From an uncultured Candidatus Saccharibacteria bacterium (GTDB lineage: Bacteria; Patescibacteriota; UBA1384; DTJR01), in contig CAZAOT010000002.1 of NCBI GenBank assembly GCA_964487045.1, forward strand, positions 1-51,304: a stretch of 51,304 bases of DNA, given 5' to 3'. The stretch's first letter is position 1; each line of letters opens with the position of its first letter. The notes below the pieces were generated by a model. It worked only from the letters and a program-made list of their open reading frames with translations. It did no database searches and was not told the DNA's origin. Below, one piece after another: positions 3,596 through 43,050 of this stretch. The translations under genes and the position numbers were made by a program.

Positions 3596-4857
3596 TTGGC
3601 CCTCGCTAGTTTAGTTGCTGCTCCGGCAGTTTTACCTGAATTCGAGCTAATGACATTAATTATCTGAGTTGAGAATTTCTTTAAGGTGTTGCCGGCTTGC
3701 GAAGACATGGCGAGCTGAACGGTCACTGAAGTGCTTTTGAGTAGAACGGAGAATAAGGCGACGCCGACCAGTATTCCGATGATCGGGTTCTCGCCGATTT
3801 GACCGGGTACGGTTAGGAAAGCAGAAGCCAGTTGAATAATTACCACATGCAGAAAAACGGTAAAGATTGTAACTACATATATCTTCACAGCATTACCGAC
3901 AAAGTCAGACATTTTAGTGGATAGCGATAGCAGACAGACGAGCGGAGAGATAACTGCGCCAAAAGCCAGTATCATTAAACGGCTGATGTAGAATATCAAC
4001 AAGACCACAGCCAGCAATATAAAAAGAATCGCAAATATCAAAGTTATTAAAGCGGTTGTACCGGAGAGCAGTGCTGCCGGATCAAAAGCATTTATTATCC
4101 AGGCGCTTGAGAGCCCGCCGGTTGCATGAAGAACTGTATTGACCATTACTTGGCATAGCTCTATTATCCAATCGATCCAGAAGATAGAAGTATTCGCCAG
4201 TAGAAAGGCCAAGCCAATTCTCGGCAAGAGCTCTTTTAGCGGGAGGTCATCAAATCCGAATGATGATGCGCTCATTACTCTAAATCCCAACAGTGCAATC
4301 GCAATAGCGAAAAGCGAATCAGTGATTCCAACGATAATCAGCCAGAAGTTAAAAATGACTGAGTTAGTTGAAAGCGAAGGAGTGGAAGTCAAAAACCAAA
4401 GAATGCCGTTTAGTATCGGCTTAGTCACCGAGCCGACAATGTTTTGCAAAAATCCTGAAACCGCATCCAATAGAATTTGAGTCAGAGTTCCAGCTTGCTG
4501 AGTAGGCTCAATCGGAGCCAGTTGCAATGCGGTAGCAGATCCGCCGCTTGAGCTTTGCATTAAAGATTCGCTTAAGAGATTCGACATAAAGGCGGCAGCG
4601 ATTACTATTACCAATCCGATCAGAGCATTTCTTATCGTTCTTTTGGCGTCTTCAAGCGCGGCAGGATTGCCGGTTGAGGTGATGTACAGATAACCGCCTC
4701 GAACCAGAAAGAAAACGACAGCAGTCCCAGCTAATGCCAGAATTGCCGTCATCGCGTCAGAGGCAAAATGATCGACCTCGGCGTTGGAGGCAGCAAAAGC
4801 AACTCCAGGAATTAGGAGCGGAGTTATGATCCCGATTCTAATTATTAGTTTTTTCAT
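3592..4857 (-). CDS. VirB6/TrbL-like polytopic T4SS membrane protein with an N-terminal pilin-like module
   Basis: Signal peptide plus GGYLYITSTGNPAALEDAKRTI, a paralog of the upstream pilin motif, followed by at least 6 predicted TM helices. Confidence 0.55.
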   Translation of the reverse strand: MKKLIIRIGIITPLLIPGVAFAASNAEVDHFASDAMTAILALAGTAVVFFLVRGGYLYITSTGNPAALEDAKRTIRNALIGLVIVIAAAFMSNLLSESLMQSSSGGSATALQLAPIEPTQQAGTLTQILLDAVSGFLQNIVGSVTKPILNGILWFLTSTPSLSTNSVIFNFWLIIVGITDSLFAIAIALLGFRVMSASSFGFDDLPLKELLPRIGLAFLLANTSIFWIDWIIELCQVMVNTVLHATGGLSSAWIINAFDPAALLSGTTALITLIFAILFILLAVVLLIFYISRLMILAFGAVISPLVCLLSLSTKMSDFVGNAVKIYVVTIFTVFLHVVIIQLASAFLTVPGQIGENPIIGILVGVALFSVLLKSTSVTVQLAMSSQAGNTLKKFSTQIINVISSNSGKTAGAATKLARAK

Positions 4858-16884: not shown

Positions 16885-17032
16885 TTGTGCCCCTCGCTCC
16901 GTGAATTGCGCTCCAAGGCAGGAAGCAATTCCGGAAGTCCCGTCACTTTGATCCCTACTTGCCTGCCGGTAGGCAGGTTCGCAAATTTCTTAGATTAAGA
17001 ATATTGCGAGAGGGTGAAAAGTGACTGGGATA
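16885..17032 (-). repeat. Structured intergenic repeat, copy A (5' of gpmI)
   Basis: Shares ordered sequence blocks and stem positions with 18167-18290 (see findings). Confidence 0.6.
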
Positions 17033-33058: not shown

Positions 33059-34432
33059 ATGAGCCAAGAGACCAAATTAACGAATACTGCACCGTTTCAG
33101 CTACCACAAGAAGTAAATGGGGTGTTTGCCGGGCCAATTCAGCCGCCAGATCCGGAAACGAGATACTGCCTTTACGCTCGCAAATCAAGTGAAGATGACG
33201 AGAGGCAAGCACTTTCGATCGGTTCACAAATTAACGAGATGACCAGGCAAGCAGAAACGCAAAGTTTACAGGTCGTTGAAGTTCGGCAAGAAAGTCATTC
33301 GGCAAAATATTCTGGACAAAGACCCATATTTCAACAGCTGATTGGCGATATCCAAAACGGATTATTTAACGGAATTTTAAGTTGGGCGCCCGACCGATTG
33401 TCGAGAAACGCTGGTGACTTGGGATCTATTGTTGATTTGATGGATCGAGGATTATTGAAAGAAATTCGGACTCATGGGCAAGTTTTTACAAATTCACCTA
33501 ATGATAAGTTCCTGCTGATGATTTTATGTTCACAAGCAAAGCTAGAGAATGATAATCGAGGAATCAATATCAAAAGAGGGATGAGGGCAAAATGCGAAAT
33601 GGGCTTCCGACCCAATATGGCTCCAATTGGATACCTGAATGATAAGTACGGCAATAAAGGTCAGCGAAAGGTTTATCCAGATCCTGATAGAGCACCGATC
33701 ATCAAAGAAGCTTTTGAGAAAGTCGGCTATCACGGTTGTTCTGGTCGTCAGGTCTATCTTTGGCTTAAAGACGAGGTTGCGTTTGTAACTCGAAGCGGAA
33801 AGCCGATGACTTTAAGCACAATTTATCGAACTTTGAGTAATCCCTATTATACCGGAGTATTCGAAGTGCCTGAGGGTAGCGGCAATTGGTATAAAGGGGC
33901 ATATGAACCGATCGTTTCGAAAGAGCTATTTAAAATTGTACAAGAAAAATTAACCGTAGTGCCAAAGAGCATGCCCGGAACCAAACAATTTGATTTTACC
34001 AAGTTATTAAAATGCGGAGAGTGCGGTTCTGGAATCACGGCACAGGAAAAAATTAAGCATTGGGGAAAAAGATATGTTTATTACCACTGTACGAAGTTGA
34101 GAAATTTTGAATGTCCTGAGCGATATACAAACGAAGAAAAATTAGTACAAGAATTTATAAGAATTCTATCGAAGCTGACAATCGATCAGATCAAATCCAA
34201 AAGAGAGATTTATGGCAAATTTGAGCAATTTTGTAAATTCAGATCGGACGTATTGGATTTCGAGCTAAAACCGAACCAAGCAAATTATATTGATCAGACA
34301 CGAATTAACATCGAAAAATTTGTTGAACATATTTTCGAAAAAGGTAATCGCGAAGAGAAGCGGTCGCTAATCGGTTGTCTAAGCGCAAAACTAATTCTGA
34401 AAAATCGAGAAGTTTGTTTGTTAGAACTCTAA
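33059..34432 (+). CDS. Large serine recombinase (Rec2), paralogous to Rec3
   Basis: YCLYARKSSEDDERQALSIGSQ, APDRLSRN, Zn ribbon CGECGSGITA...YYHCTK; blockwise similar to 36986-38590. Confidence 0.85.
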   Translation: MSQETKLTNTAPFQLPQEVNGVFAGPIQPPDPETRYCLYARKSSEDDERQALSIGSQINEMTRQAETQSLQVVEVRQESHSAKYSGQRPIFQQLIGDIQNGLFNGILSWAPDRLSRNAGDLGSIVDLMDRGLLKEIRTHGQVFTNSPNDKFLLMILCSQAKLENDNRGINIKRGMRAKCEMGFRPNMAPIGYLNDKYGNKGQRKVYPDPDRAPIIKEAFEKVGYHGCSGRQVYLWLKDEVAFVTRSGKPMTLSTIYRTLSNPYYTGVFEVPEGSGNWYKGAYEPIVSKELFKIVQEKLTVVPKSMPGTKQFDFTKLLKCGECGSGITAQEKIKHWGKRYVYYHCTKLRNFECPERYTNEEKLVQEFIRILSKLTIDQIKSKREIYGKFEQFCKFRSDVLDFELKPNQANYIDQTRINIEKFVEHIFEKGNREEKRSLIGCLSAKLILKNREVCLLEL

Positions 34433-36184: not shown

Positions 36185-36271
36185 TGGTGGGCGAGGTGGG
36201 AATCGAACCCACAATCCCTTGCGAGAATAAGTTTTTGAGACTTACGCGTATACCAGTTCCGCCACTCGCCC
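36185..36271 (-). tRNA. tRNA-Leu (anticodon CAA), class II, CCA encoded
   Basis: Hand fold: GGGCGAG/CUCGCCC acceptor, anticodon arm UAAGU-CUCAAAA-ACUUA, 14-nt variable arm with GCAA loop, T-arm GUGGG-UUCGAUU-CCCAC, ACCA. Confidence 0.9.
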
Positions 36272-36293: not shown

Positions 36294-36857
36294 TTAGTCC
36301 TCAAATGGAAGCTCGCCTTCCCTTAGAACCTTCGCTTCATCATTTGTGATATCAACGACTGTTGATGGTTGGTGGGGCTCAAATTCAGGGTCTTCTATAA
36401 TCAGATCTGCCTTGAGATAGATTTTGGCGTCTAGTGCTTTAATACTTGTAGCCGGATTATTTCCAGTTAGATTGGCTGAGGTTGCAGTTGTTGGCTTCCC
36501 GAATGCCTTTGTAATCTGAACGATAATTGAGTCTTTCGGAATTCGGACAGAAACGTCGCTCTGCAACACAAACGTAAATGGACCGGGCAAATATTTTTTT
36601 AAAATTCTAGTTTGATTTTCGTTTGGCTTTAAATATTTTTCAATCATATCGATATCTGAAAAATTAAATGAGAATTTCTGATCAGATCTTCTTCCCTTGA
36701 GATCTTCTAGCTTTTTAATTGCTTCGCCGTTTGTACCATCAACAGCAATGCCGTAAACAGTATCGGAAGGATATACAACCATTCCGCCCTTCTCCAGAAC
36801 AGATATCGCTTTATCTAGAATCTTTTTATAATTGTCTGCTGTTAATATGATTTGCAT
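36294..36857 (-). CDS. tsaC: L-threonylcarbamoyladenylate synthase (TsaC/YrdC/Sua5 family)
   Basis: VVYPSDTVYGIAVD, PGPFTFVL and KPTTATSANL motifs. Confidence 0.8.
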   Translation of the reverse strand: MQIILTADNYKKILDKAISVLEKGGMVVYPSDTVYGIAVDGTNGEAIKKLEDLKGRRSDQKFSFNFSDIDMIEKYLKPNENQTRILKKYLPGPFTFVLQSDVSVRIPKDSIIVQITKAFGKPTTATSANLTGNNPATSIKALDAKIYLKADLIIEDPEFEPHQPSTVVDITNDEAKVLREGELPFED

Positions 36858-36907
36858 ATCTTGATTATTGTCCTAATAAAATATAAAATGGCTGTTGAGC
36901 CGTATTA

Positions 36908-36936
36908 ATTCTATGCAAAAACTTGTATTCTTGCAA
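36908..36936 (-). promoter_or_regulatory. Promoter of tsaC
   Basis: Minus strand TTGCAA, 17 nt, TAGAAT. Confidence 0.4.
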
Positions 36937-36985
36937 CATGAGCTTGTACTTGCCTGCCGGCAGGCAGGGCTCAGCTGGTAGAGCA

Positions 36986-38590
36986 CTACACGCGATCCGT
37001 TAAATATTGGGCTGGTAGTTCAGCTGGTAGAACACTGCATTCGCATTGCAGAGGTAGAGGGTTCGAGTCCCTCCCAGTCCACCATTTTACATTTCGTGCC
37101 AATTCTTCCGCTTCGCTCGAGCCAACGGCTCTTGCTTGCGGTGGCAAATTCGAGAGTAATTCATATTGTTTTTGAAAATTCATAATGAGTTTTCCGCCCA
37201 GCAAAATGCGGTTCGAGCCGGCGGTTTTAAGAAAATTTCTCATAGCGGAGAAATTTTTTGTTTTAACAAAATTTCCAGCTTGGTTGGCGTCAATTATCCA
37301 GTTTTTCAAGAGTTCGAGCCAATGATTTCCTTTTCGTTCAAAATCTCTTAACTTTTCTTCAAACTCGGCTTTTTGCTCAATCAGTTTATTCTTCTTTTCT
37401 TTGTACTCTGAAAGCTCTATCGCTTGGTCTAAGTAAGCGTCAGACAAACGATCAAGCCGAGTTTTGATGGTTGCAATTTTGTTGTTTAGATTTTGAGCGA
37501 AAACAACCGACGAGTGGTATTTATCTTTTTCCCAACCTTGAACTTTTAGCATATACTTTTCTTTCCACTCGTCGGGCAAAGAAACTTTTTGACAGAGATC
37601 TTCAATTTGTTTTGCCAAAACTTCTTCGCAAACAAATTTTCTCTCGGCACAAACTTTGGTTTTGCTTTTATGAGTACAACGGTAGTAAACATATTCTCGG
37701 CCACTTGGCTTGAACTTTCTCTCGGCAGTTATGGCATAACCGCAACTTCCGCATTTGGCAAAACCAAGAAATTGAAGTTCTCTTTCCTTTCGTTTGTGCC
37801 GAGGTTTCGAGTGATCTTTTAGGGCAACTTGTATTTTGTCAAAAGTTTCTTTGGAAATCATTGGCTTATGAGAACCTTGATAAAGTTCTCCGTCATAACT
37901 TATGACGCCGTAATAAAATGGCTTCGATAGTAGTTTTTGAATTGATGACAAAGCCATTTTATGTCCGTCTTTTCCAACCAAGCCAAGAGAAAACATTTTT
38001 GCTTGAATTCCAGTCAGCGAAAACTCGCCGGTAGCAAAAAGCTCCAGCGCTTTCTTAACTAGCGAAAAAGTTTTGGGATTTGGGTCGATAGTTCGAAGTC
38101 TTGGCTCGTTGAAGTAACCGAGTGGAGCTTTTGAAGGCAATTCTCCTCGGCGAAGTTTTTGCCGTATTCCTCGCAAAATGTTTTCTCTTAAATTGTCGGT
38201 GTAATATTTGGCCTGACCAAAGGCAACGCTTAACATGAACTTTCCTTGTGGTGTTGCTTCAAACCAGAAAGTTGGGAATTTTAGCGAGGTGATTTTGCCT
38301 GTATCAACCAAGTAAATTACTCTTCCACCATCAACAGAGTTTCTGGCAAGTCGATCGGGATTCCAAGCTAAAATTCCCGAAGCGTTGCCTTTTTCAAGCT
38401 CTAAAAGCATTTGGTTAAAGATTGGTCGCCCAGGCTCCTTGGCGGTTTTGCTTTCGGTAAACTCACGAACAACAAACAAGTTATTAGTCCTGGCAAAATC
38501 TCTTAGTTCTTGGAGTTGGGCTTCAATAGACAAAATTTGTCGCTCTTCCTCTTCGGAAGATTTACGACAGTAAATGAAATACTTTTCCAT
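36986..38590 (-). CDS. Large serine recombinase (Rec3)
   Basis: YFIYCRKSSEEEERQILSIEAQ, NPDRLARN, Zn ribbon CGSCGYAITA...YYRCTH, coiled coil. The last 32 codons (after WW) are the antisense of the entire tRNA-Ala(CGC) plus 23 nt beyond it. Confidence 0.85.
   Translation of the reverse strand: MEKYFIYCRKSSEEEERQILSIEAQLQELRDFARTNNLFVVREFTESKTAKEPGRPIFNQMLLELEKGNASGILAWNPDRLARNSVDGGRVIYLVDTGKITSLKFPTFWFEATPQGKFMLSVAFGQAKYYTDNLRENILRGIRQKLRRGELPSKAPLGYFNEPRLRTIDPNPKTFSLVKKALELFATGEFSLTGIQAKMFSLGLVGKDGHKMALSSIQKLLSKPFYYGVISYDGELYQGSHKPMISKETFDKIQVALKDHSKPRHKRKERELQFLGFAKCGSCGYAITAERKFKPSGREYVYYRCTHKSKTKVCAERKFVCEEVLAKQIEDLCQKVSLPDEWKEKYMLKVQGWEKDKYHSSVVFAQNLNNKIATIKTRLDRLSDAYLDQAIELSEYKEKKNKLIEQKAEFEEKLRDFERKGNHWLELLKNWIIDANQAGNFVKTKNFSAMRNFLKTAGSNRILLGGKLIMNFQKQYELLSNLPPQARAVGSSEAEELARNVKWWTGRDSNPLPLQCECSVLPAELPAQYLTDRV
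37009..37084 (+). tRNA. tRNA-Ala (anticodon CGC), CCA encoded
   Basis: Hand fold: GGGCTGG/CCAGTCC acceptor with G3:U70, D-stem GTTC/GAAC, anticodon arm CTGCA-TTCGCAT-TGCAG, T-arm GAGGG-TTCGAGT-CCCTC, ACCA. Confidence 0.9.
37079..37214 (+). repeat. Inverted repeat arm A (covers the Rec3 3' coding end)
   Basis: Reverse complement of 38707-38842. The inner ~104-105 nt have 3 mismatches; the outer about 30 nt next to CCACCA are diverged. Confidence 0.85.
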
Positions 38591-38706
38591 TTTTCCCTCC
38601 TTAAATTTTGTCTATAACCAAATGCTTTTATACACCGACAATTTTCTGGAAATTTTGTTACCGCCGGGGCTCTAAAGAATTTCATTCTTTTCTGTGCTTC
38701 GCACAG

Positions 38707-38842
38707 GAACCGCATTTTGCTGGGCGGAAAACTCATTATGAATTTTCAAAAACAATATGAATTACTCTCGAATTTGCCCCCGCAAGCGAGAGCCATTGGC
38801 TCGAGCGAAGCGGAACAAATTAAATTAAATACAATGTGGTGG
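38707..38842 (-). repeat. Inverted repeat arm B (pseudo-copy of the Rec3 3' end upstream of the Rec3 promoter)
   Basis: The + strand reads RILLGGKLIMNFQKQYELLSNLPPQARAIGSSEAE..WW, matching Rec3 residues near the C-terminus. It ends on tggtgg, which is also the first 6 nt of IR-L. Confidence 0.85.
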
Positions 38843-39020
38843 TATGTTTTGAACGAAGCTCGAACTTTTTTCGAAAATGCTGAAATTTAATACTGATGCT
38901 CGCGACCCGCAAAGCGGGTCGCTCGCTTTATTTCCTTTTTTTCAAAATACATTTTTGCGCGGCCGTGGAGGGGTGTGGGGAGGAAACGGCCGCGCTAGCT
39001 TTTTTGGGGCGGGGCGGAAA
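38837..39020 (+). repeat. 184-bp inverted repeat, left arm (IR-L)
   Basis: Reverse complement of 42387-42570 with one mismatch (38844 a vs 42563 c). Contains hairpins at 38902-38922 and 38957-38995, each followed by a T-run. Confidence 0.95.
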
Positions 39021-39100
39021 AAATTAGACACAGATCAAATGCTTATGCTAATTATAGTATGTAGCATTAAAATTAGCAATTAGCTTATACTTGTATTAAA

Positions 39101-39313
39101 ATGAAGAAAGGTATCTTAATAAAATTTGGTGACCGAGTCCGCGAAGAACGCTTGAAACTTGGATTGTCGCAAGAAGAACTTGCTGTTAAAACTGGAGTTC
39201 ACCGAACCTATATTGGCATGATCGAACGAGCCGAGAAAAATATTACCTTGTTAAATATTGAAAAGATAGCAGGGGCTTTAAAAATCACTGTGAACCAACT
39301 ATTTAGAAAATAA
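39101..39313 (+). CDS. XRE-family HTH transcriptional regulator (70 aa)
   Basis: LGLSQEELAVKTGVHRTYIGMIERAEKNITLLNIEKIA. Confidence 0.8.
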   Translation: MKKGILIKFGDRVREERLKLGLSQEELAVKTGVHRTYIGMIERAEKNITLLNIEKIAGALKITVNQLFRK

Positions 39314-39317
39314 TTAT

Positions 39318-42300
39318 ATGGATGAATTTGGAAAATATACTCCAGAGGAAGCTTTCGACGAATCACAGCGTCTTGGAAATTCCACTGGATCTAATAAAAA
39401 TGAATTAGATGAAGCAGAATTTCAATTACTAAATGAATCTCAGCGAGAACTCGCTGATAGAATTATTGAAGACCCAGCTATTTCAATCCCAGAAGTTTAT
39501 TTTGAAAGACAACAAAATCCCGAAGCAGTCAGAAGTGTGCTATCTTTGAATATTGTACAGTCAGCATTACGAAGAGCATTGATTGATTCAATTTTTGACG
39601 GGGATGTCGGGTTAACTGAAAGTCTAATAAAAGAATACGAGTTACCAGAAAGTGTAATTTCTTCTTCTGAGTTGCAAACAAAGATAAAAGACGAAGCAAT
39701 ATTTCTTTTAGGTCATTATGATTTTGGAAAATTCCAGAAATTATTTGATCTATTTGGTTTGCCAGACGCAATTGGTGAATATAATTTAGATTTCAATATA
39801 TTTTTTAGAATAGATCGTCGATTTACTTTCTCTAGTATTTTAGAATTTGGTAGGTTTATCCAACAGCATGAAACATATTTTGGTTGGCTGGAGAATGAGA
39901 AACTTAATGGACGAGAGTCTGAATGGTTATTTGATGAACATGAGTTAGATAGCATCAAACAAAAATACCTTAGACCAGAAGAGGCCCATGTTTTGGTGTT
40001 GCATGGATTTACAGTTTCATCCAATTGGACAGAAACAGGTGGAAAAGATAGCTATGAAGAAGCGTTAAAAGTACTGTCAGCGACGGAATCACTTAAACGC
40101 TGGCAAGAATCGGATGAATTAGTGCAGTTTCTAGAAGTTTTTGATGAGGATGATCAAATAGAACCGACCCATGGGGAAAATGGTGTCCAAGAAAGGCAAA
40201 CCGAAGAAGCGACAACAATATTTGAAAGAGCGTCAAAAAGATTTGGTTACCGGTCAATGTTTCAATTCTGTTTTAGGGATGATGTAGGGATGCATGACAT
40301 GCTTCATGCGTACGATGATATCGAAGACAGTCTGTTCAAGTCCTCTGGACTCAAACCAAGTGAGTTTTTTGGCCAGATACTTTTTCAAGTTAAAATGGAT
40401 TCAGTCAACTACCAAGATGGTGCGAGTTACCACCGGCTTAATACGATCGCACAATCATTCAATCCACAAGAAGCCCAGAAAGTAATAAAAGAATTATCAC
40501 AAATTCCCGAATTTGCCGAAATGTCCGCTTCATACAAGACGGTGGAAGACATTTTTTCATCATGGGCCAGTTTAAAAAAATTCCATAAGCTCCAGACAAT
40601 CCTTGGACAGCAAGATCTACTCAACCAGTTAAAAACTCAGGGACATACGAAACTAATTGATTATATACGCCGGTTGGCTTTTGGCGGATCAAGTGTAAGC
40701 ATCGAGAAAGTACTACAATTTTGGAAAGATCCTAGTGGCTTTTTAAATATCAGCGAACGACATGCAAGAAGAGTTCATGAGTTGAAAAAGCCATCACATT
40801 ATACAGAAATACCTCACCTTGACCTAACTCCCGAAGAACTTCGCGACTCACTGGTTGAAGGAGACCTAGATTCCCTTCAAGTTTTCCACCCATTAGAAAT
40901 AGAATATACCATATCATCTAGTGCTGGAAATTTAAGAGAAAATTTGACAGAAGCATTGGGCAGTCGGGAAGCGGGAATAAAGCCAAGAGCTAAAAATCCA
41001 AAAAAATTGTATTCTGCAGTTAAAAATATTTTAGACCCAGCTGGTATCAGTCTTAAGGATTATCTTCAAGGTCAAGCTGACTTACCATCTGGTATGGAAG
41101 ATCAATTGGGTATTATCTTGAAAGACGATTCTGCAGGGCTTGTGGACCACGTTGAGGTGTATCGAGCAAAGATATATTCCAAAAGCGATCCCGAAAGTGT
41201 TGTTGCTGGAAATGATACTTCATGTTGTATGCCTTTTGGATCAGGAAAAAATAATATTTACACATTCAACCCTATCTGCTCAACGTTTGTGGTCCAGAGA
41301 CAAAACAACAATGGAAGTTGGCGGACGATAGCGCAAAGTATTTTGACAGAAGATGTTGATATTCATGAGAATATACATGAGTTAATGCAACGAATTGACT
41401 TTGCTGATAAAAGTCAATTAAGAGAATTTATTCCTCAGAGCGTATTGGAGCAATCGCCATCTGTGGTTACCGCCGACAATATTGAAGTATCACCTAATTT
41501 TGCTGCTTCCGAACAATCCAGTTTAATATTGGAACAAATATATCGTGATTTCTTTCAAGAATATAGCCGCCGATATTTACAAGGCGAGTCAAATGATGGC
41601 TCTAGAATAATCGTTGGAAAAGGGTATTCAGAAATCATGGGTCATCTACCAGAAGTAAACAATACATTTTTACCACGGACACCAGTTGCATACTCCGACA
41701 ATATAATGCAAACCGCCTATCAGTTAGACTTGTGGGGGGAGCCGAATCCTGTTATGGACTGGAAGGGGCGCATCACAGAGACATACACACCGATAGATCA
41801 GTCATCAGACTCTAGAGTTCTTTCAGATGTTGGTATCCGCGGCTTGTCATTTCTTGGTTTTAGAGACGCTCTGCCTGTTTCGTTCATCGAGGGCAAAGCA
41901 TATGAGGACAACCCAGAGCTTCTTGTATATTTACATAATATGGAAAATGCCTTAATAGCAAAAGACATCAACAACTCCAGAAAGAAACGTTCGAATATGA
42001 GCTTGAAATGGCAAGATTCTACCGGGAAAATTCATGGTTACATTCTTGCGTACGAAGGAGTTAGCGTAAGGGCTGCCGATACAGTTTCTCATCAAGCCCA
42101 AGAACGAATATTATATATTTCCGACCTAGCTTCTGATTCCGAATCGAAATTAGCCGGCGGGTACCTCATCAAAGGTTTTTTCGAACTATATAGAAGGAAT
42201 TATCTCGAGAAGGGTGATTTTATTCCAATTGTTTTTGAGGGTAGAGAGCAAACATCATATTCAATAGTAGCAAAACAAATTAGTAGGATCGCATCAAATC

Positions 42301-42386
42301 TAGGATATGAATGTTCTCTCGAGGAAGGTGAGGCCTATAAACATGGAAATGACATAATGCACCCCGTGGTCCTTCGATTTAAATAA
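39318..42386 (+). CDS. 1022-aa orphan protein, possible GNAT-like C-terminal domain
   Basis: Long uninterrupted ORF 4 nt after the XRE stop. The C-terminal about 170 aa (GYILAYEG...ILYISDLASD...LAGGYLIKGFFELY...IVFEGRE) resembles an acetyltransferase fold. No other motif was recognised. Confidence 0.7.
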   Translation: MDEFGKYTPEEAFDESQRLGNSTGSNKNELDEAEFQLLNESQRELADRIIEDPAISIPEVYFERQQNPEAVRSVLSLNIVQSALRRALIDSIFDGDVGLTESLIKEYELPESVISSSELQTKIKDEAIFLLGHYDFGKFQKLFDLFGLPDAIGEYNLDFNIFFRIDRRFTFSSILEFGRFIQQHETYFGWLENEKLNGRESEWLFDEHELDSIKQKYLRPEEAHVLVLHGFTVSSNWTETGGKDSYEEALKVLSATESLKRWQESDELVQFLEVFDEDDQIEPTHGENGVQERQTEEATTIFERASKRFGYRSMFQFCFRDDVGMHDMLHAYDDIEDSLFKSSGLKPSEFFGQILFQVKMDSVNYQDGASYHRLNTIAQSFNPQEAQKVIKELSQIPEFAEMSASYKTVEDIFSSWASLKKFHKLQTILGQQDLLNQLKTQGHTKLIDYIRRLAFGGSSVSIEKVLQFWKDPSGFLNISERHARRVHELKKPSHYTEIPHLDLTPEELRDSLVEGDLDSLQVFHPLEIEYTISSSAGNLRENLTEALGSREAGIKPRAKNPKKLYSAVKNILDPAGISLKDYLQGQADLPSGMEDQLGIILKDDSAGLVDHVEVYRAKIYSKSDPESVVAGNDTSCCMPFGSGKNNIYTFNPICSTFVVQRQNNNGSWRTIAQSILTEDVDIHENIHELMQRIDFADKSQLREFIPQSVLEQSPSVVTADNIEVSPNFAASEQSSLILEQIYRDFFQEYSRRYLQGESNDGSRIIVGKGYSEIMGHLPEVNNTFLPRTPVAYSDNIMQTAYQLDLWGEPNPVMDWKGRITETYTPIDQSSDSRVLSDVGIRGLSFLGFRDALPVSFIEGKAYEDNPELLVYLHNMENALIAKDINNSRKKRSNMSLKWQDSTGKIHGYILAYEGVSVRAADTVSHQAQERILYISDLASDSESKLAGGYLIKGFFELYRRNYLEKGDFIPIVFEGREQTSYSIVAKQISRIASNLGYECSLEEGEAYKHGNDIMHPVVLRFK

Positions 42387-42570
42387 TTTCCGCCCCGCCC
42401 CAAAAAAGCTAGCGCGGCCGTTTCCTCCCCACACCCCTCCACGGCCGCGCAAAAATGTATTTTGAAAAAAAGGAAATAAAGCGAGCGACCCGCTTTGCGG
42501 GTCGCGAGCATCAGTATTAAATTTCAGCATTTTCGAAAAAAGTTCGAGCTTCGTTCAAAACACACCACCA
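42387..42570 (-). repeat. 184-bp inverted repeat, right arm (IR-R)
   Basis: Starts on the nucleotide after the TAA stop of the 1022-aa ORF and ends in ccacca. Confidence 0.95.
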
Positions 42571-42589
42571 AGTTATTGCCCAATTTAAC

Positions 42590-42637
42590 GGGCTGAACAT
42601 TGCGGAGATGGCAGTTCGATTCTGCCTAGGTCCACCA
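42590..42637 (+). pseudogene. tRNA-Ala 3'-half remnant (anticodon-loop end, T-arm, acceptor with U70, CCA)
   Basis: GGGCTGAA-CATTGCGG-AGAT-GGCAG-TTCGATT-CTGCC-TAGGTCC-ACCA. It lacks the D-arm and the 5' anticodon stem, and parallels positions 37044-37084 of the intact tRNA. Confidence 0.65.
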
Positions 42638-42786
42638 ATTTGTATTTTGTTTAATTTGTTCCGCTTCGCACGGGATCAAACCCAACGATTCGGCTGGTAA
42701 TTCTGTATAAAGGCGAATAAATTGTATATGATTTCTTGAAAAAGAATCTATAAAATCATAATTAGCGATTCGCTAGAAAGGATATA

Positions 42787-43050
42787 ATGAATTTAGTGAT
42801 TGGGATTGTAGCGATTGTTATCGGTTTCCTGCTTAATCAGTGGATATCACATTCATTAAGCAAAGATGCATTATCAAGGCCTATGTTTTTAAACTACCCT
42901 ACAGGCGTACTTATTTCTACGGTCGTCTATATTTCAGTCTATGTCGTTGGATTGTATTTTTTATACAGAATTTCAATTTGGATACCAGTCATACTAGTTT
43001 CTTTGTTTTTATTGATAATAATTTCCAACTTATTGAAAAAATCTAAATAG
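42787..43050 (+). CDS. Small membrane protein (3 TM helices)
   Basis: Hydrophobic 87-aa ORF; no motif. Confidence 0.4.
   Translation: MNLVIGIVAIVIGFLLNQWISHSLSKDALSRPMFLNYPTGVLISTVVYISVYVVGLYFLYRISIWIPVILVSLFLLIIISNLLKKSK

Follow-up and report, generated by a model that had tools for sequence, protein, structure and literature searches.

The window is a stretch of 51,304 nt that forms the first 51 kb of contig C2 (CAZAOT010000002.1, assembly GCA_964487045.1) from an uncultured Candidatus Saccharibacteria bacterium. The genome comprises 0.97 Mb in five contigs with 41% G+C, and its relatives are Patescibacteria, also known as the Candidate Phyla Radiation (CPR). The subject of this report is the neighborhood of an intact tRNA-Ala(CGC) gene, which is probably a locus of three nested layers. 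The outermost layer is a shell composed of the two parts of a broken tRNA-Ala(CGC). The shell encloses a short inverted-repeat cassette that carries the intact, inner tRNA-Ala(CGC), and between the arms of the cassette sits an island that encodes a large serine recombinase (LSR). The same confidence applies to the assignment of four sites that end in CCACCA: sites 1 to 3 belong to the island, and site 4 is the 3' end of the shell.

A broken tRNA-Ala around an intact one

The 3' part of the shell had been described in the initial annotation as a remnant with a T-arm, an Ala-type acceptor strand, and CCA that starts at 42590. The T-arm GGCAG/TTCGATT/CTGCC, the acceptor strand TAGGTCC, A73, and CCA are all present at 42610-42637, but homology to tRNA-Ala begins at 42598. 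The segment 42598-42637 agrees at 39 of 40 positions with the 3' portion of the tRNA-Ala(CGC) genes from two further Patescibacteria genomes (loci L037 and L053), with 27 of these 40 nt preset by the search pattern. Its proposed derivation from a different tRNA-Ala than the intact gene is borne out, with at most 22/40 identical positions to the genome's own three tRNA-Ala genes. Compared with the live inner tRNA, ungapped from the 3' end, the remnant has 21/40 identical positions, and the local alignment score does not exceed background, as 179 of 5000 shuffles reach it. ARAGORN does not call the remnant as a gene, the Rfam tRNA model gives it no score, and only tmRNA models reach its T-arm and acceptor strand (E 0.0015).

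The last 27 nt of the remnant occur exactly in 51 species-representative genomes, mostly Patescibacteria, and mostly as the 3' ends of intact tRNA-Ala (CGC or TGC). A 28-nt remnant pattern, allowing up to 3 mismatches, has no match in 15 genomes of the same order. Therefore, the 3' half of the shell is not a near copy of any tRNA of a close relative. Moreover, the remnant needs an origin other than the LSR because a crossover in a 6-7-nt core at the CCA end duplicates no tRNA sequence.

Six of the loci in the 51 genomes have the 3' part separate from the 5' half. At L045, L032, and L071, the halves of one tRNA-Ala bracket a short insert that holds a complete second tRNA-Ala. These inserts have short inverted repeats at their ends and lie between anticodon positions 35 and 36, and the halves are complementary in the acceptor and anticodon stems. 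The same geometry of complementary tRNA-Ala halves around an insert is observed at L052 and L087. The 3' junction of the window, TTTAACGGGCTGAA^CATTGCGGAGA (^ marks the break), is almost identical to the L045 junction. When metagenomes were scanned for it, 12 matches were obtained, 10 of which are a tRNA-Ala(CGC) in a tRNA-Ala with both junctions window-like and no island. Several genomes also have the same junctions around an inner tRNA-Ala without an island in the cassette.

The junctions of this cassette family are ..NNCG^CCCCGTTAGA.. on the 5' side and ..TCTAACGGGGTGAA^CAT.. on the 3' side, the latter given as ..AGTTATCTAACGGGGTGAA^CAT.. in the family alignment. Inverted arms (CCGTTAAATATTGGGC and GCCCAATTTAACGG) flank the inner tRNA, and the window aligns with 9 loci of the family. 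When the island is deleted from the window on paper, the remainder aligns with the metagenome loci in every column, and the fragment 36969-36994 takes the place of the 5' half. The position of this fragment equals that of the 5' halves in 7 of the 9 family loci. The fragment lies directly upstream of the intact tRNA and had gone unreported in the initial annotation. The inner tRNA-Ala(CGC) is thus found between fragments broken in the anticodon (..CTACA CGCG up to 36994 and CAT TGCGG from 42598). The 5' fragment and the intact tRNA are 14 nt apart, and 27 nt (42571-42597) directly precede the 3' fragment on the side of the 1022-aa gene. Intact tRNA-Ala genes of other organisms, on loose ends of contigs, match the window from 42598 on and diverge before it with ...TTCG, which places the break at position 35/36.

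A leader motif, ccgttaaatattgggc, had been reported just upstream of the tRNA and again, inverted, beyond the island. The second copy is present, at 42578-42591 by alignment, and agrees with 36997-37012 at 14/16 positions with a 2-nt gap, a pair score that 4/5000 shuffles reach. The repeat extends into the first 4 nt of the inner tRNA. Originally taken for the scar of an inversion, the two copies are the terminal inverted arms of the cassette.

The cassette ends were also tried as a search pattern. TCGGGACAWN{12,15}GTTCRA gave 11 matches in 401 Patescibacteria genomes and a similar number in the controls, so the pattern as such shows no enrichment. Of the 8 pattern loci inspected, only 4 have true cassette termini that lie in the anticodon loop of a tRNA, namely L086 and L087 (tRNA-Ala), L089 (tRNA-Trp), and L095 (tRNA-Cys). 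ARAGORN in intron mode makes many chimeric calls from adjacent tRNAs, and only calls verified by eye were kept. In relatives G013, G008, G002, and G001 (L008, L012, L013, and L014), tRNA-Ala(CGC) is located less than 400 nt from a contig end in several cases. This suggests that assemblies often break at the locus, as expected if it is polymorphic or rich in repeats.

One candidate for the enzyme that moves the cassette is a small GIY-YIG nuclease. The cassette of L052 holds an 89-aa GIY-YIG gene, and in L029, from a relative of the same order, an 85-aa GIY-YIG gene is located directly before tRNA-Ala. Most cassettes, including that of the window, are without any gene. Hairpin elements of the form TCCCGA...TCGGGA that carry no tRNA also insert just before CA in tRNA genes (L089 and L029). 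In L029 (relative G010, reverse complement, 4100-4521), a tRNA-Ala is interrupted in its D-loop after its first 12 nt, where a 54-nt TTCCGA...TCGGGA hairpin element is inserted before CA; the 85-aa gene comes next, and an intact tRNA-Ala(CGC) after it. The target is therefore of the same kind for hairpin elements that lack a tRNA. A trans-acting enzyme that recognizes the hairpin ends seems at least as likely as GIY-YIG homing. Elsewhere in the genome (C1:180238-180770), an 83-aa GIY-YIG-like open reading frame (ORF) is located directly before a tRNA-Thr(TGT) that has a 195-nt insert in its anticodon loop. This insert resembles a group I intron (..gatatagtcc..), and standard ARAGORN makes no call there.

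The serine-recombinase island and its attachment sites

Sites 1 to 3 are the attachment sites of one LSR island at 37085-42570. Four sites with GTTCGA followed by CCACCA had been proposed as serine-recombinase att sites, and all four are present where they were placed. The pattern GTTCGAK-N11-16-CCACCA has 5 matches in the window versus 0.01 expected from shuffles, the fifth being in tRNA-Leu (36185-36208). Sites 1 to 3 stand as att sites and site 4 as an attL-type junction; the recombinase as the maker of the remnant does not. Site 1 is made up of tRNA arm.CCACCA.R (attL, B.O.P'). Site 2, on the minus strand, is P.CCACCA.R (a copy of attP, P.O.P'), and site 3 is P.CCACCA.X (attR, P.O.B'). The sites are linked by two inverted-repeat pairs, 37079-37214 with 38707-38842 (136 nt, 90%) and 38837-39025 with 42382-42570 (189 nt, 98%). 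These pairs overlap on exactly six bases, TGGTGG at 38837-38842.

The LSR possesses the domains PF00239 (1.8e-19), PF07508 (2e-9), and PF13408 (3.6e-6) and matches a PHROG integrase (8.6e-72). Its gene abuts site 1, and the ORF runs antisense through attL and the whole tRNA. The LSR is predicted to catalyze recombination at sites 1 to 3.

The genome encodes three paralogs of this LSR (42-45% identity), each located beside a tRNA, i.e., tRNA-Leu(TAG), tRNA-Arg(GCG), and tRNA-Pro(CGG). The layout T.core.R[LSR]R'.core.P'[cargo]P.core.X is identical in all three paralog islands. Each has two inverted-repeat pairs that overlap by 6-7 nt, and the arm sequences are unrelated between islands. The cores match the 3' end of each tRNA (CCACCA for Leu, GTACCAG for Arg, and CGACCAA for Pro). 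The distance from the start of GTTCGA to the core is 18 nt for the tRNA arms and 23 nt for the P arms, in 4/4 islands. The outer motif of such enzymes is reportedly shifted 5 bp inward in attB relative to attP half sites, an offset of a half-turn that is said to be the basis of site discrimination.

An LSR with 66% identity is found at a tRNA-Ala in a Parcubacteria genome. Its attL, gene, and inverted attP copy match the layout, on a contig that stops within the island. An attP-like copy kept inside the island in inverted orientation is a fixed part of the design of this family because it is seen in the four islands here and in the visible part of this relative. It is not the scar of a local inversion, and the nested inversion put forward in the initial annotation gains no support from it, as the same order of attL, inverted attP copy, and attR is found in all four islands. 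The LSR frame points toward and into the tRNA in five islands (tblastn matches and ORFs; a sixth island, G003/L030, was left out), and there is no sign of segment flipping in these five. As guesses, site 2 could be an autoregulatory operator or a spare site.

The cargo differs by island. The Ala island carries a helix-turn-helix (HTH) protein and a 1022-aa orphan, the Leu island an FAD oxidoreductase, and the Arg island an ORF without a family match. The proteins of the Pro island show weak matches, one to S26 peptidase and one to F5/8-type C. Viral contigs gave no match to the relic-arm motif described below, and LSR matches there were partial or distant.

A putative unoccupied form of the site was found in Logan contigs. 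Contigs of four wastewater runs were aligned to 36600-43000, and only stretches with contig cover were used. In run X5, a contig joins 37078 to 42565, skipping 5486 nt, with 6 nt that fit either side. This joint reads as T1.core.X and would be the empty attB. A joint from 42571 back to 37086 is present in contigs of both X5 and X6, giving P.core.R with a site-1-type R arm, and their shorter sides are 33-34 nt. The two joints correspond to both products that would be expected from excision, as read from assembled contigs with side lengths of 24-34 nt. The empty-site contig suggests that island integration is the most recent step, and it may still be reversible.

The features of the locus are listed in Table 1. 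Near its left edge, a tRNA-Leu(CAA) (36185-36271, minus strand) also ends in GTTCGA..CCACCA, and a more distant serine recombinase gene (37% identity) is found 2 kb beyond, at 33161-34201. This neighboring tRNA may be the host of a further island. At the tRNA-Arg island (G000 C1:43190-46082, L003), the 3' end of the tRNA-Arg recurs as an exact direct repeat of 22 nt, 138 nt beyond attR, with an inverted copy of the T-arm between attR and the repeat. This is another tRNA fragment outside an LSR island.

Table 1. Features of the tRNA-Ala(CGC) locus, in window coordinates
Feature	Position	Strand	Description
Sua5-family gene	36294-36857	minus	
Palindrome gcctgccggcaggc	36952-36967	unstranded	Sits where the 5' acceptor strand of the outer tRNA is expected; multi-copy in the genome
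5' shell	36969-36994	+	Front part of the decayed outer tRNA-Ala(CGC), about positions 10-35; D-arm, A26, CTACA, CGCG
LSR gene, 534 aa	36986-38590	minus	Resolvase, Recombinase, and Zn_ribbon_recom domains
Left arm of the tRNA cassette, ATCCGTTAAATATT	36995-37008	+	Family consensus ..NNCG^CCCCGTTAGA
Inner intact tRNA-Ala(CGC)	37009-37084	+	ARAGORN; Rfam tRNA 67.9 bits; G3:U70; encoded CCA
Site 1 (attL)			Core CCACCA 37079-37084; B arm is the 3' part of the inner tRNA
R arm	37079-37214	+	P'-type half site and antisense of the LSR 3' coding end; 136-nt inverted repeat arm
Second R arm copy	38707-38842	minus	Site 2 core 38837-38842
Site 2, inverted, attP-like	38707-39025		P.CCACCA.R read on the minus strand; second R arm copy plus left P arm copy
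Left P arm copy	38837-39025	minus	189-nt inverted repeat, 98% complementary
HTH_3 regulator	39101-39313	+	Island cargo
1022-aa protein without family match	39318-42386	+	Island cargo
Right P arm copy	42382-42570	+	Ends in the attR core (site 3, CCACCA 42565-42570)
Cassette trailer and right arm	42571-42597	+	agttatt, GCCCAATTTAACGG (42578-42591), gc, TGAA (42594-42597); doubles as the B' arm of the island attR
3' shell	42598-42637	+	Outer tRNA-Ala(CGC) positions 36-76; site 4 core 42632-42637
Relic R arm, 35 nt	42638-42672	+	Homologous to the island R arm; with the 3' shell, an attL-type junction

The probable relic arm, the shell, and rival explanations

The spacing of site 4 is of the attB type, as GTTCGA in the 3' end of the shell is 18 nt away from the core. 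The 35 nt after this core are homologous to the island R arm, and the similarity takes in the stretch coding for the LSR C-terminus (ttccgcttcgc) before it ends. The claim in the initial annotation that some 45 nt after the sites are related holds up, as the similarity exceeds background in local alignments against 5000 shuffles each. The site 4 flank matches the site 2 flank at 30/33 positions (0/5000 shuffles reach the score) and the site 1 flank at 15/17 (3/5000), and a repeat search pairs the site 2 and site 4 arms over 41 nt at 88%. These 35 nt are most likely the relic attL arm of a sibling island that has since been deleted. The closest relative of the LSR sits on a tRNA-Ala with a 3' part 38/40 identical to the shell. 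R-like stretches are also observed after the shell in L071 and between the inner tRNA and the cassette arm in L019.

A related arrangement is found on contig C3 (C3:222620-225200; L001 3621-6201). There, the 5' two-thirds of a tRNA-Ile(GAT) are repeated upstream of the gene, and three 3' fragments follow it in tandem downstream, all of which end in CCACCA. An R-arm homolog is joined to the outermost of these fragments, and next come a gene for a 580-aa orphan cargo protein and a P-arm homolog, with no LSR gene. This locus has the appearance of a sibling island, stranded and non-autonomous, behind stacked tRNA shells, and it fits the relic reading.

It is unlikely that the 35 nt instead arrived from a donor genome with the 3' half of the shell, by co-conversion or by transfer with the cassette, or that they are a B' flank conserved by chance. 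Such an import is consistent with the 39/40 identity of the shell 3' half to tRNAs of distant Patescibacteria, the 5' fragment being more like the order's own type, and cassette trailers and R arms both start with similar a(a/g)tt(a/g)t motifs. However, the R-arm similarity spans 33 nt, including part of the LSR C-terminus, which is far past a half-site resemblance, and the 35 nt are closest to the site 2 arm of this very island.

Less probable still, and rated quite improbable, is the model of the initial annotation, in which nested integrations and inversions by the serine recombinase left the four sites, the remnant, and the inverted leader as scars, and the remnant is a tRNA end moved by that enzyme. 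All four sites do share the T-arm-like motif and CCACCA, three of them share the R flank, and inverted repeats are plentiful near the recombinase gene. Yet an LSR crossover at the 6-7-nt core copies no tRNA sequence, and the inverted leader and the 3' half recur with identical junctions at loci without an island in the cassette. Moreover, the internal inverted site is constant (4/4 islands and the visible part of the distant relative), and the orientation of the LSR is the same in five islands.

A classical tyrosine-integrase island would rebuild the tRNA from a copy in attP and displace the 3' end of the host tRNA, which would then be the remnant. A tRNA 3' fragment downstream of a tRNA-adjacent island is the textbook signature of this process. 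The anticodon loop is a known crossover sublocation of tyrosine integrases, and the break here falls in that loop. Even so, this origin is highly improbable. Neither the island nor its surroundings hold a tyrosine recombinase, and the only PF00589 match in the genome is at C1:90637-91170. The 21/40 ungapped identity of remnant and intact tRNA leaves no att repeat, and the mechanism does not produce a 5' fragment upstream of a complete tRNA. The ends of the island are fully accounted for by the LSR sites.

The remaining question is whether the shell is alive. Its 5' part is composed of a D-arm (GCTC/AGCTGGTA/GAGC), A26, the 5' strand of the anticodon stem (CTACA), and CGCG. By the family alignment, CGCG represents loop positions 32-35 and holds the first two anticodon bases, C34 and G35. 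A stretch of 20 nt of this fragment is 90% identical to the D-arm of the inner tRNA. The shell halves are intact in L045, L032, L052, and L087, and truncated or mismatched shells are also found in family members L100, L102, L104, and L106. Rfam scans of both junction regions detected no group I or other intron family. Matches to HPnc0260, Plastid-ycf2, and tmRNA models near both sites were rejected as side effects of tRNA-like sequence, far below the gathering scores. Because of the truncated and mismatched members and the lack of an intron model at either junction region, shells are read as wreckage and not exons. The shell in the window is dead.

A living shell, whose halves and paired arms form the precursor of a second tRNA-Ala by splicing or trans-joining, is highly improbable as well. 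The halves found in other genomes pair perfectly in both the acceptor and the anticodon stem, their sequences differing from genome to genome, and the arms would join the halves. Such complementarity is, however, expected from common ancestry alone. Here, the 5' acceptor strand is absent and the halves are 5.6 kb apart, and many family members are truncated or mismatched. The TCCCGA/TCGGGA type of arm forms no bulge-helix-bulge (in our reading), and no group I intron model matches.

Several points weigh against the three-layer reading. The 5' acceptor strand of the shell is missing, with a palindrome in its place, and the shell halves of the window do not have the complementarity observed elsewhere, as the stem CTACA/TGCGG contains a mismatch and a G-U pair. 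These shell fragments may come from different shells of a deeper nest, and the missing strand and the stem mismatch fit either decay or such a nest. The 5' fragment is as like the order's native tRNA-Ala as any other (scores of 16-19 of 26). Scores equal to the 14/16 match of the inverted leader are found elsewhere in the 51-kb window, and alone this match is no better than the best chance matches; its significance therefore rests on its position and on the same geometry in other genomes. Precise excision by an LSR leaves no R relic, hence a separate deletion is required. The 24 core-proximal nt of the R arm differ between site 1 (37085-37108) and site 2 (38813-38836). The rest of the arm is 96% identical between the two sites, and in the other three islands the two R copies agree all the way to the core. 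Site 1 has the version that matches the R arm at the tRNA-Ile on C3, and the version of site 2 matches the relic at 42638-42672. The joint from 37078 to 42565 has 24 nt on its shorter side and comes from an assembled contig of another study. It could represent a never-occupied strain in place of an excision product, and the P.core.R joint could be a variant site 2 with a site-1-type R arm in place of a circle. Recombination of the island is read from sequence and not from direct observation.

Two further observations concern the surroundings of the shell. A third, more decayed shell after the relic (ACGGGATCAA... from 42673) was considered and rejected, as its score of 13 is equaled by 1409/5000 shuffles. 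Copies of the palindrome (t)gcctgccggcaggc(a), about 20 nt long, are located at about 16956-16977 in the window and at C1:90142, C1:241794, C2:120950, C2:274549, C3:83006, and C3:85369. A related palindrome breaks a tRNA-Ile fragment on C3, and another is upstream of the cassette in the metagenome locus L102.

Under the three-layer reading, the history of the locus would have three steps. The shell tRNA-Ala(CGC) would have been present first, at some time bearing a sibling island. An inverted-repeat cassette with a complete tRNA-Ala(CGC) would then have entered the shell between anticodon positions 35 and 36, its arms now being 36995-37008 and 42578-42597. This entry would have killed the shell, the parts of which are now 36969-36994 and 42598-42637, and supplied a replacement tRNA. 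Finally, the 5.5-kb LSR island would have entered where the inner tRNA ends in the discriminator and CCA, through conservative recombination of attP with attB at a 6-nt core. The island would thereby have taken the cassette trailer (agttatt...) as its B' arm, come to sit between the cassette arms, and moved the right arm of the cassette and the 3' half of the shell 5.5 kb downstream. In general terms, islands would dock on the live tRNA copy, become stranded when a cassette replaces that copy, and then decay.

Known systems and significance

The LSR resembles the large serine integrases of phiC31, Bxb1, A118/LI, and SPbeta (SprA) in its Resolvase, Recombinase, and zinc-ribbon domains and in its short common core. 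As with phiC31-type integrases, the attP and attB half sites are asymmetric with a 5-bp offset of the outer motif, and the putative empty site would be precise. Unlike the phiC31 type, the islands here target the extreme 3' end of tRNA genes (discriminator and CCA), have the recombinase frame across attP/attL, and have an inverted, full-length attP-like copy upstream of the gene. A literature search did not find these island features (tRNA 3'-end target, frame across att, and inverted attP copy) for characterized enzymes. It also found no description of split or nested tRNAs in CPR or of this serine-integrase arrangement at tRNA genes.

The cassette is comparable to tRNA-dependent lysogeny of actinobacteriophages (Guerrero-Bustamante and Hatfull 2024, PMC10865867), where a tRNA gene is broken and a spare is supplied. 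Lysogeny involves a whole prophage and a tyrosine integrase, whereas the cassette is about 100-400 nt, has inverted-repeat arms, and has no recombinase gene. It sits precisely at anticodon position 35/36, and nests can reach a depth of several layers.

T4 SegB (PMC2330249) is a free-standing GIY-YIG homing endonuclease encoded next to tRNA genes that is reported to promote the inheritance of a tRNA gene region. SegB has a parallel in the small GIY-YIG genes inside the L052 cassette and upstream of the tRNA-Ala in L029. The proteins here differ in being only 85-89 aa, predicted to be the catalytic domain only, and homing by repair needs no terminal inverted repeats. With the repeats of tyrosine-integrase islands, the locus shares a partial tRNA copy downstream of a tRNA-adjacent island. 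It differs in having no tyrosine integrase and a 5' fragment upstream as well, and the identity of the remnant and the live tRNA is limited to the generic T-loop and CCACCA.

Not every tRNA fragment beyond an island is an att duplication, and the result corrects this tempting misreading. The locus is a natural example of three mobile layers, the order of which is readable from the sequence as shell, then cassette, then island. The islands also provide candidate minimal att sites for serine integrases of tRNA ends. Four cognate sets with different cores, each about 50-60 bp, are found in one genome and are directly testable as orthogonal integration tools.

A broader reading, which is doubtful at present, is that CPR tRNA genes are contested by two interacting selfish DNAs, the islands at the CCA end and the cassettes that split the gene, and that a mutual ratchet leaves ordered stacks of shells and relics. 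Equally tentative within this ratchet is that each new inner tRNA is a fresh attB, with the B' half site of the island inside the conserved cassette trailer. Cassette insertion could be selected for freeing the tRNA from an island whose integrase gene runs antisense through it. Cassettes and CCA-end islands meet at the same loci, which helps explain the piles of tRNA fragments and the frequent assembly breaks found there.

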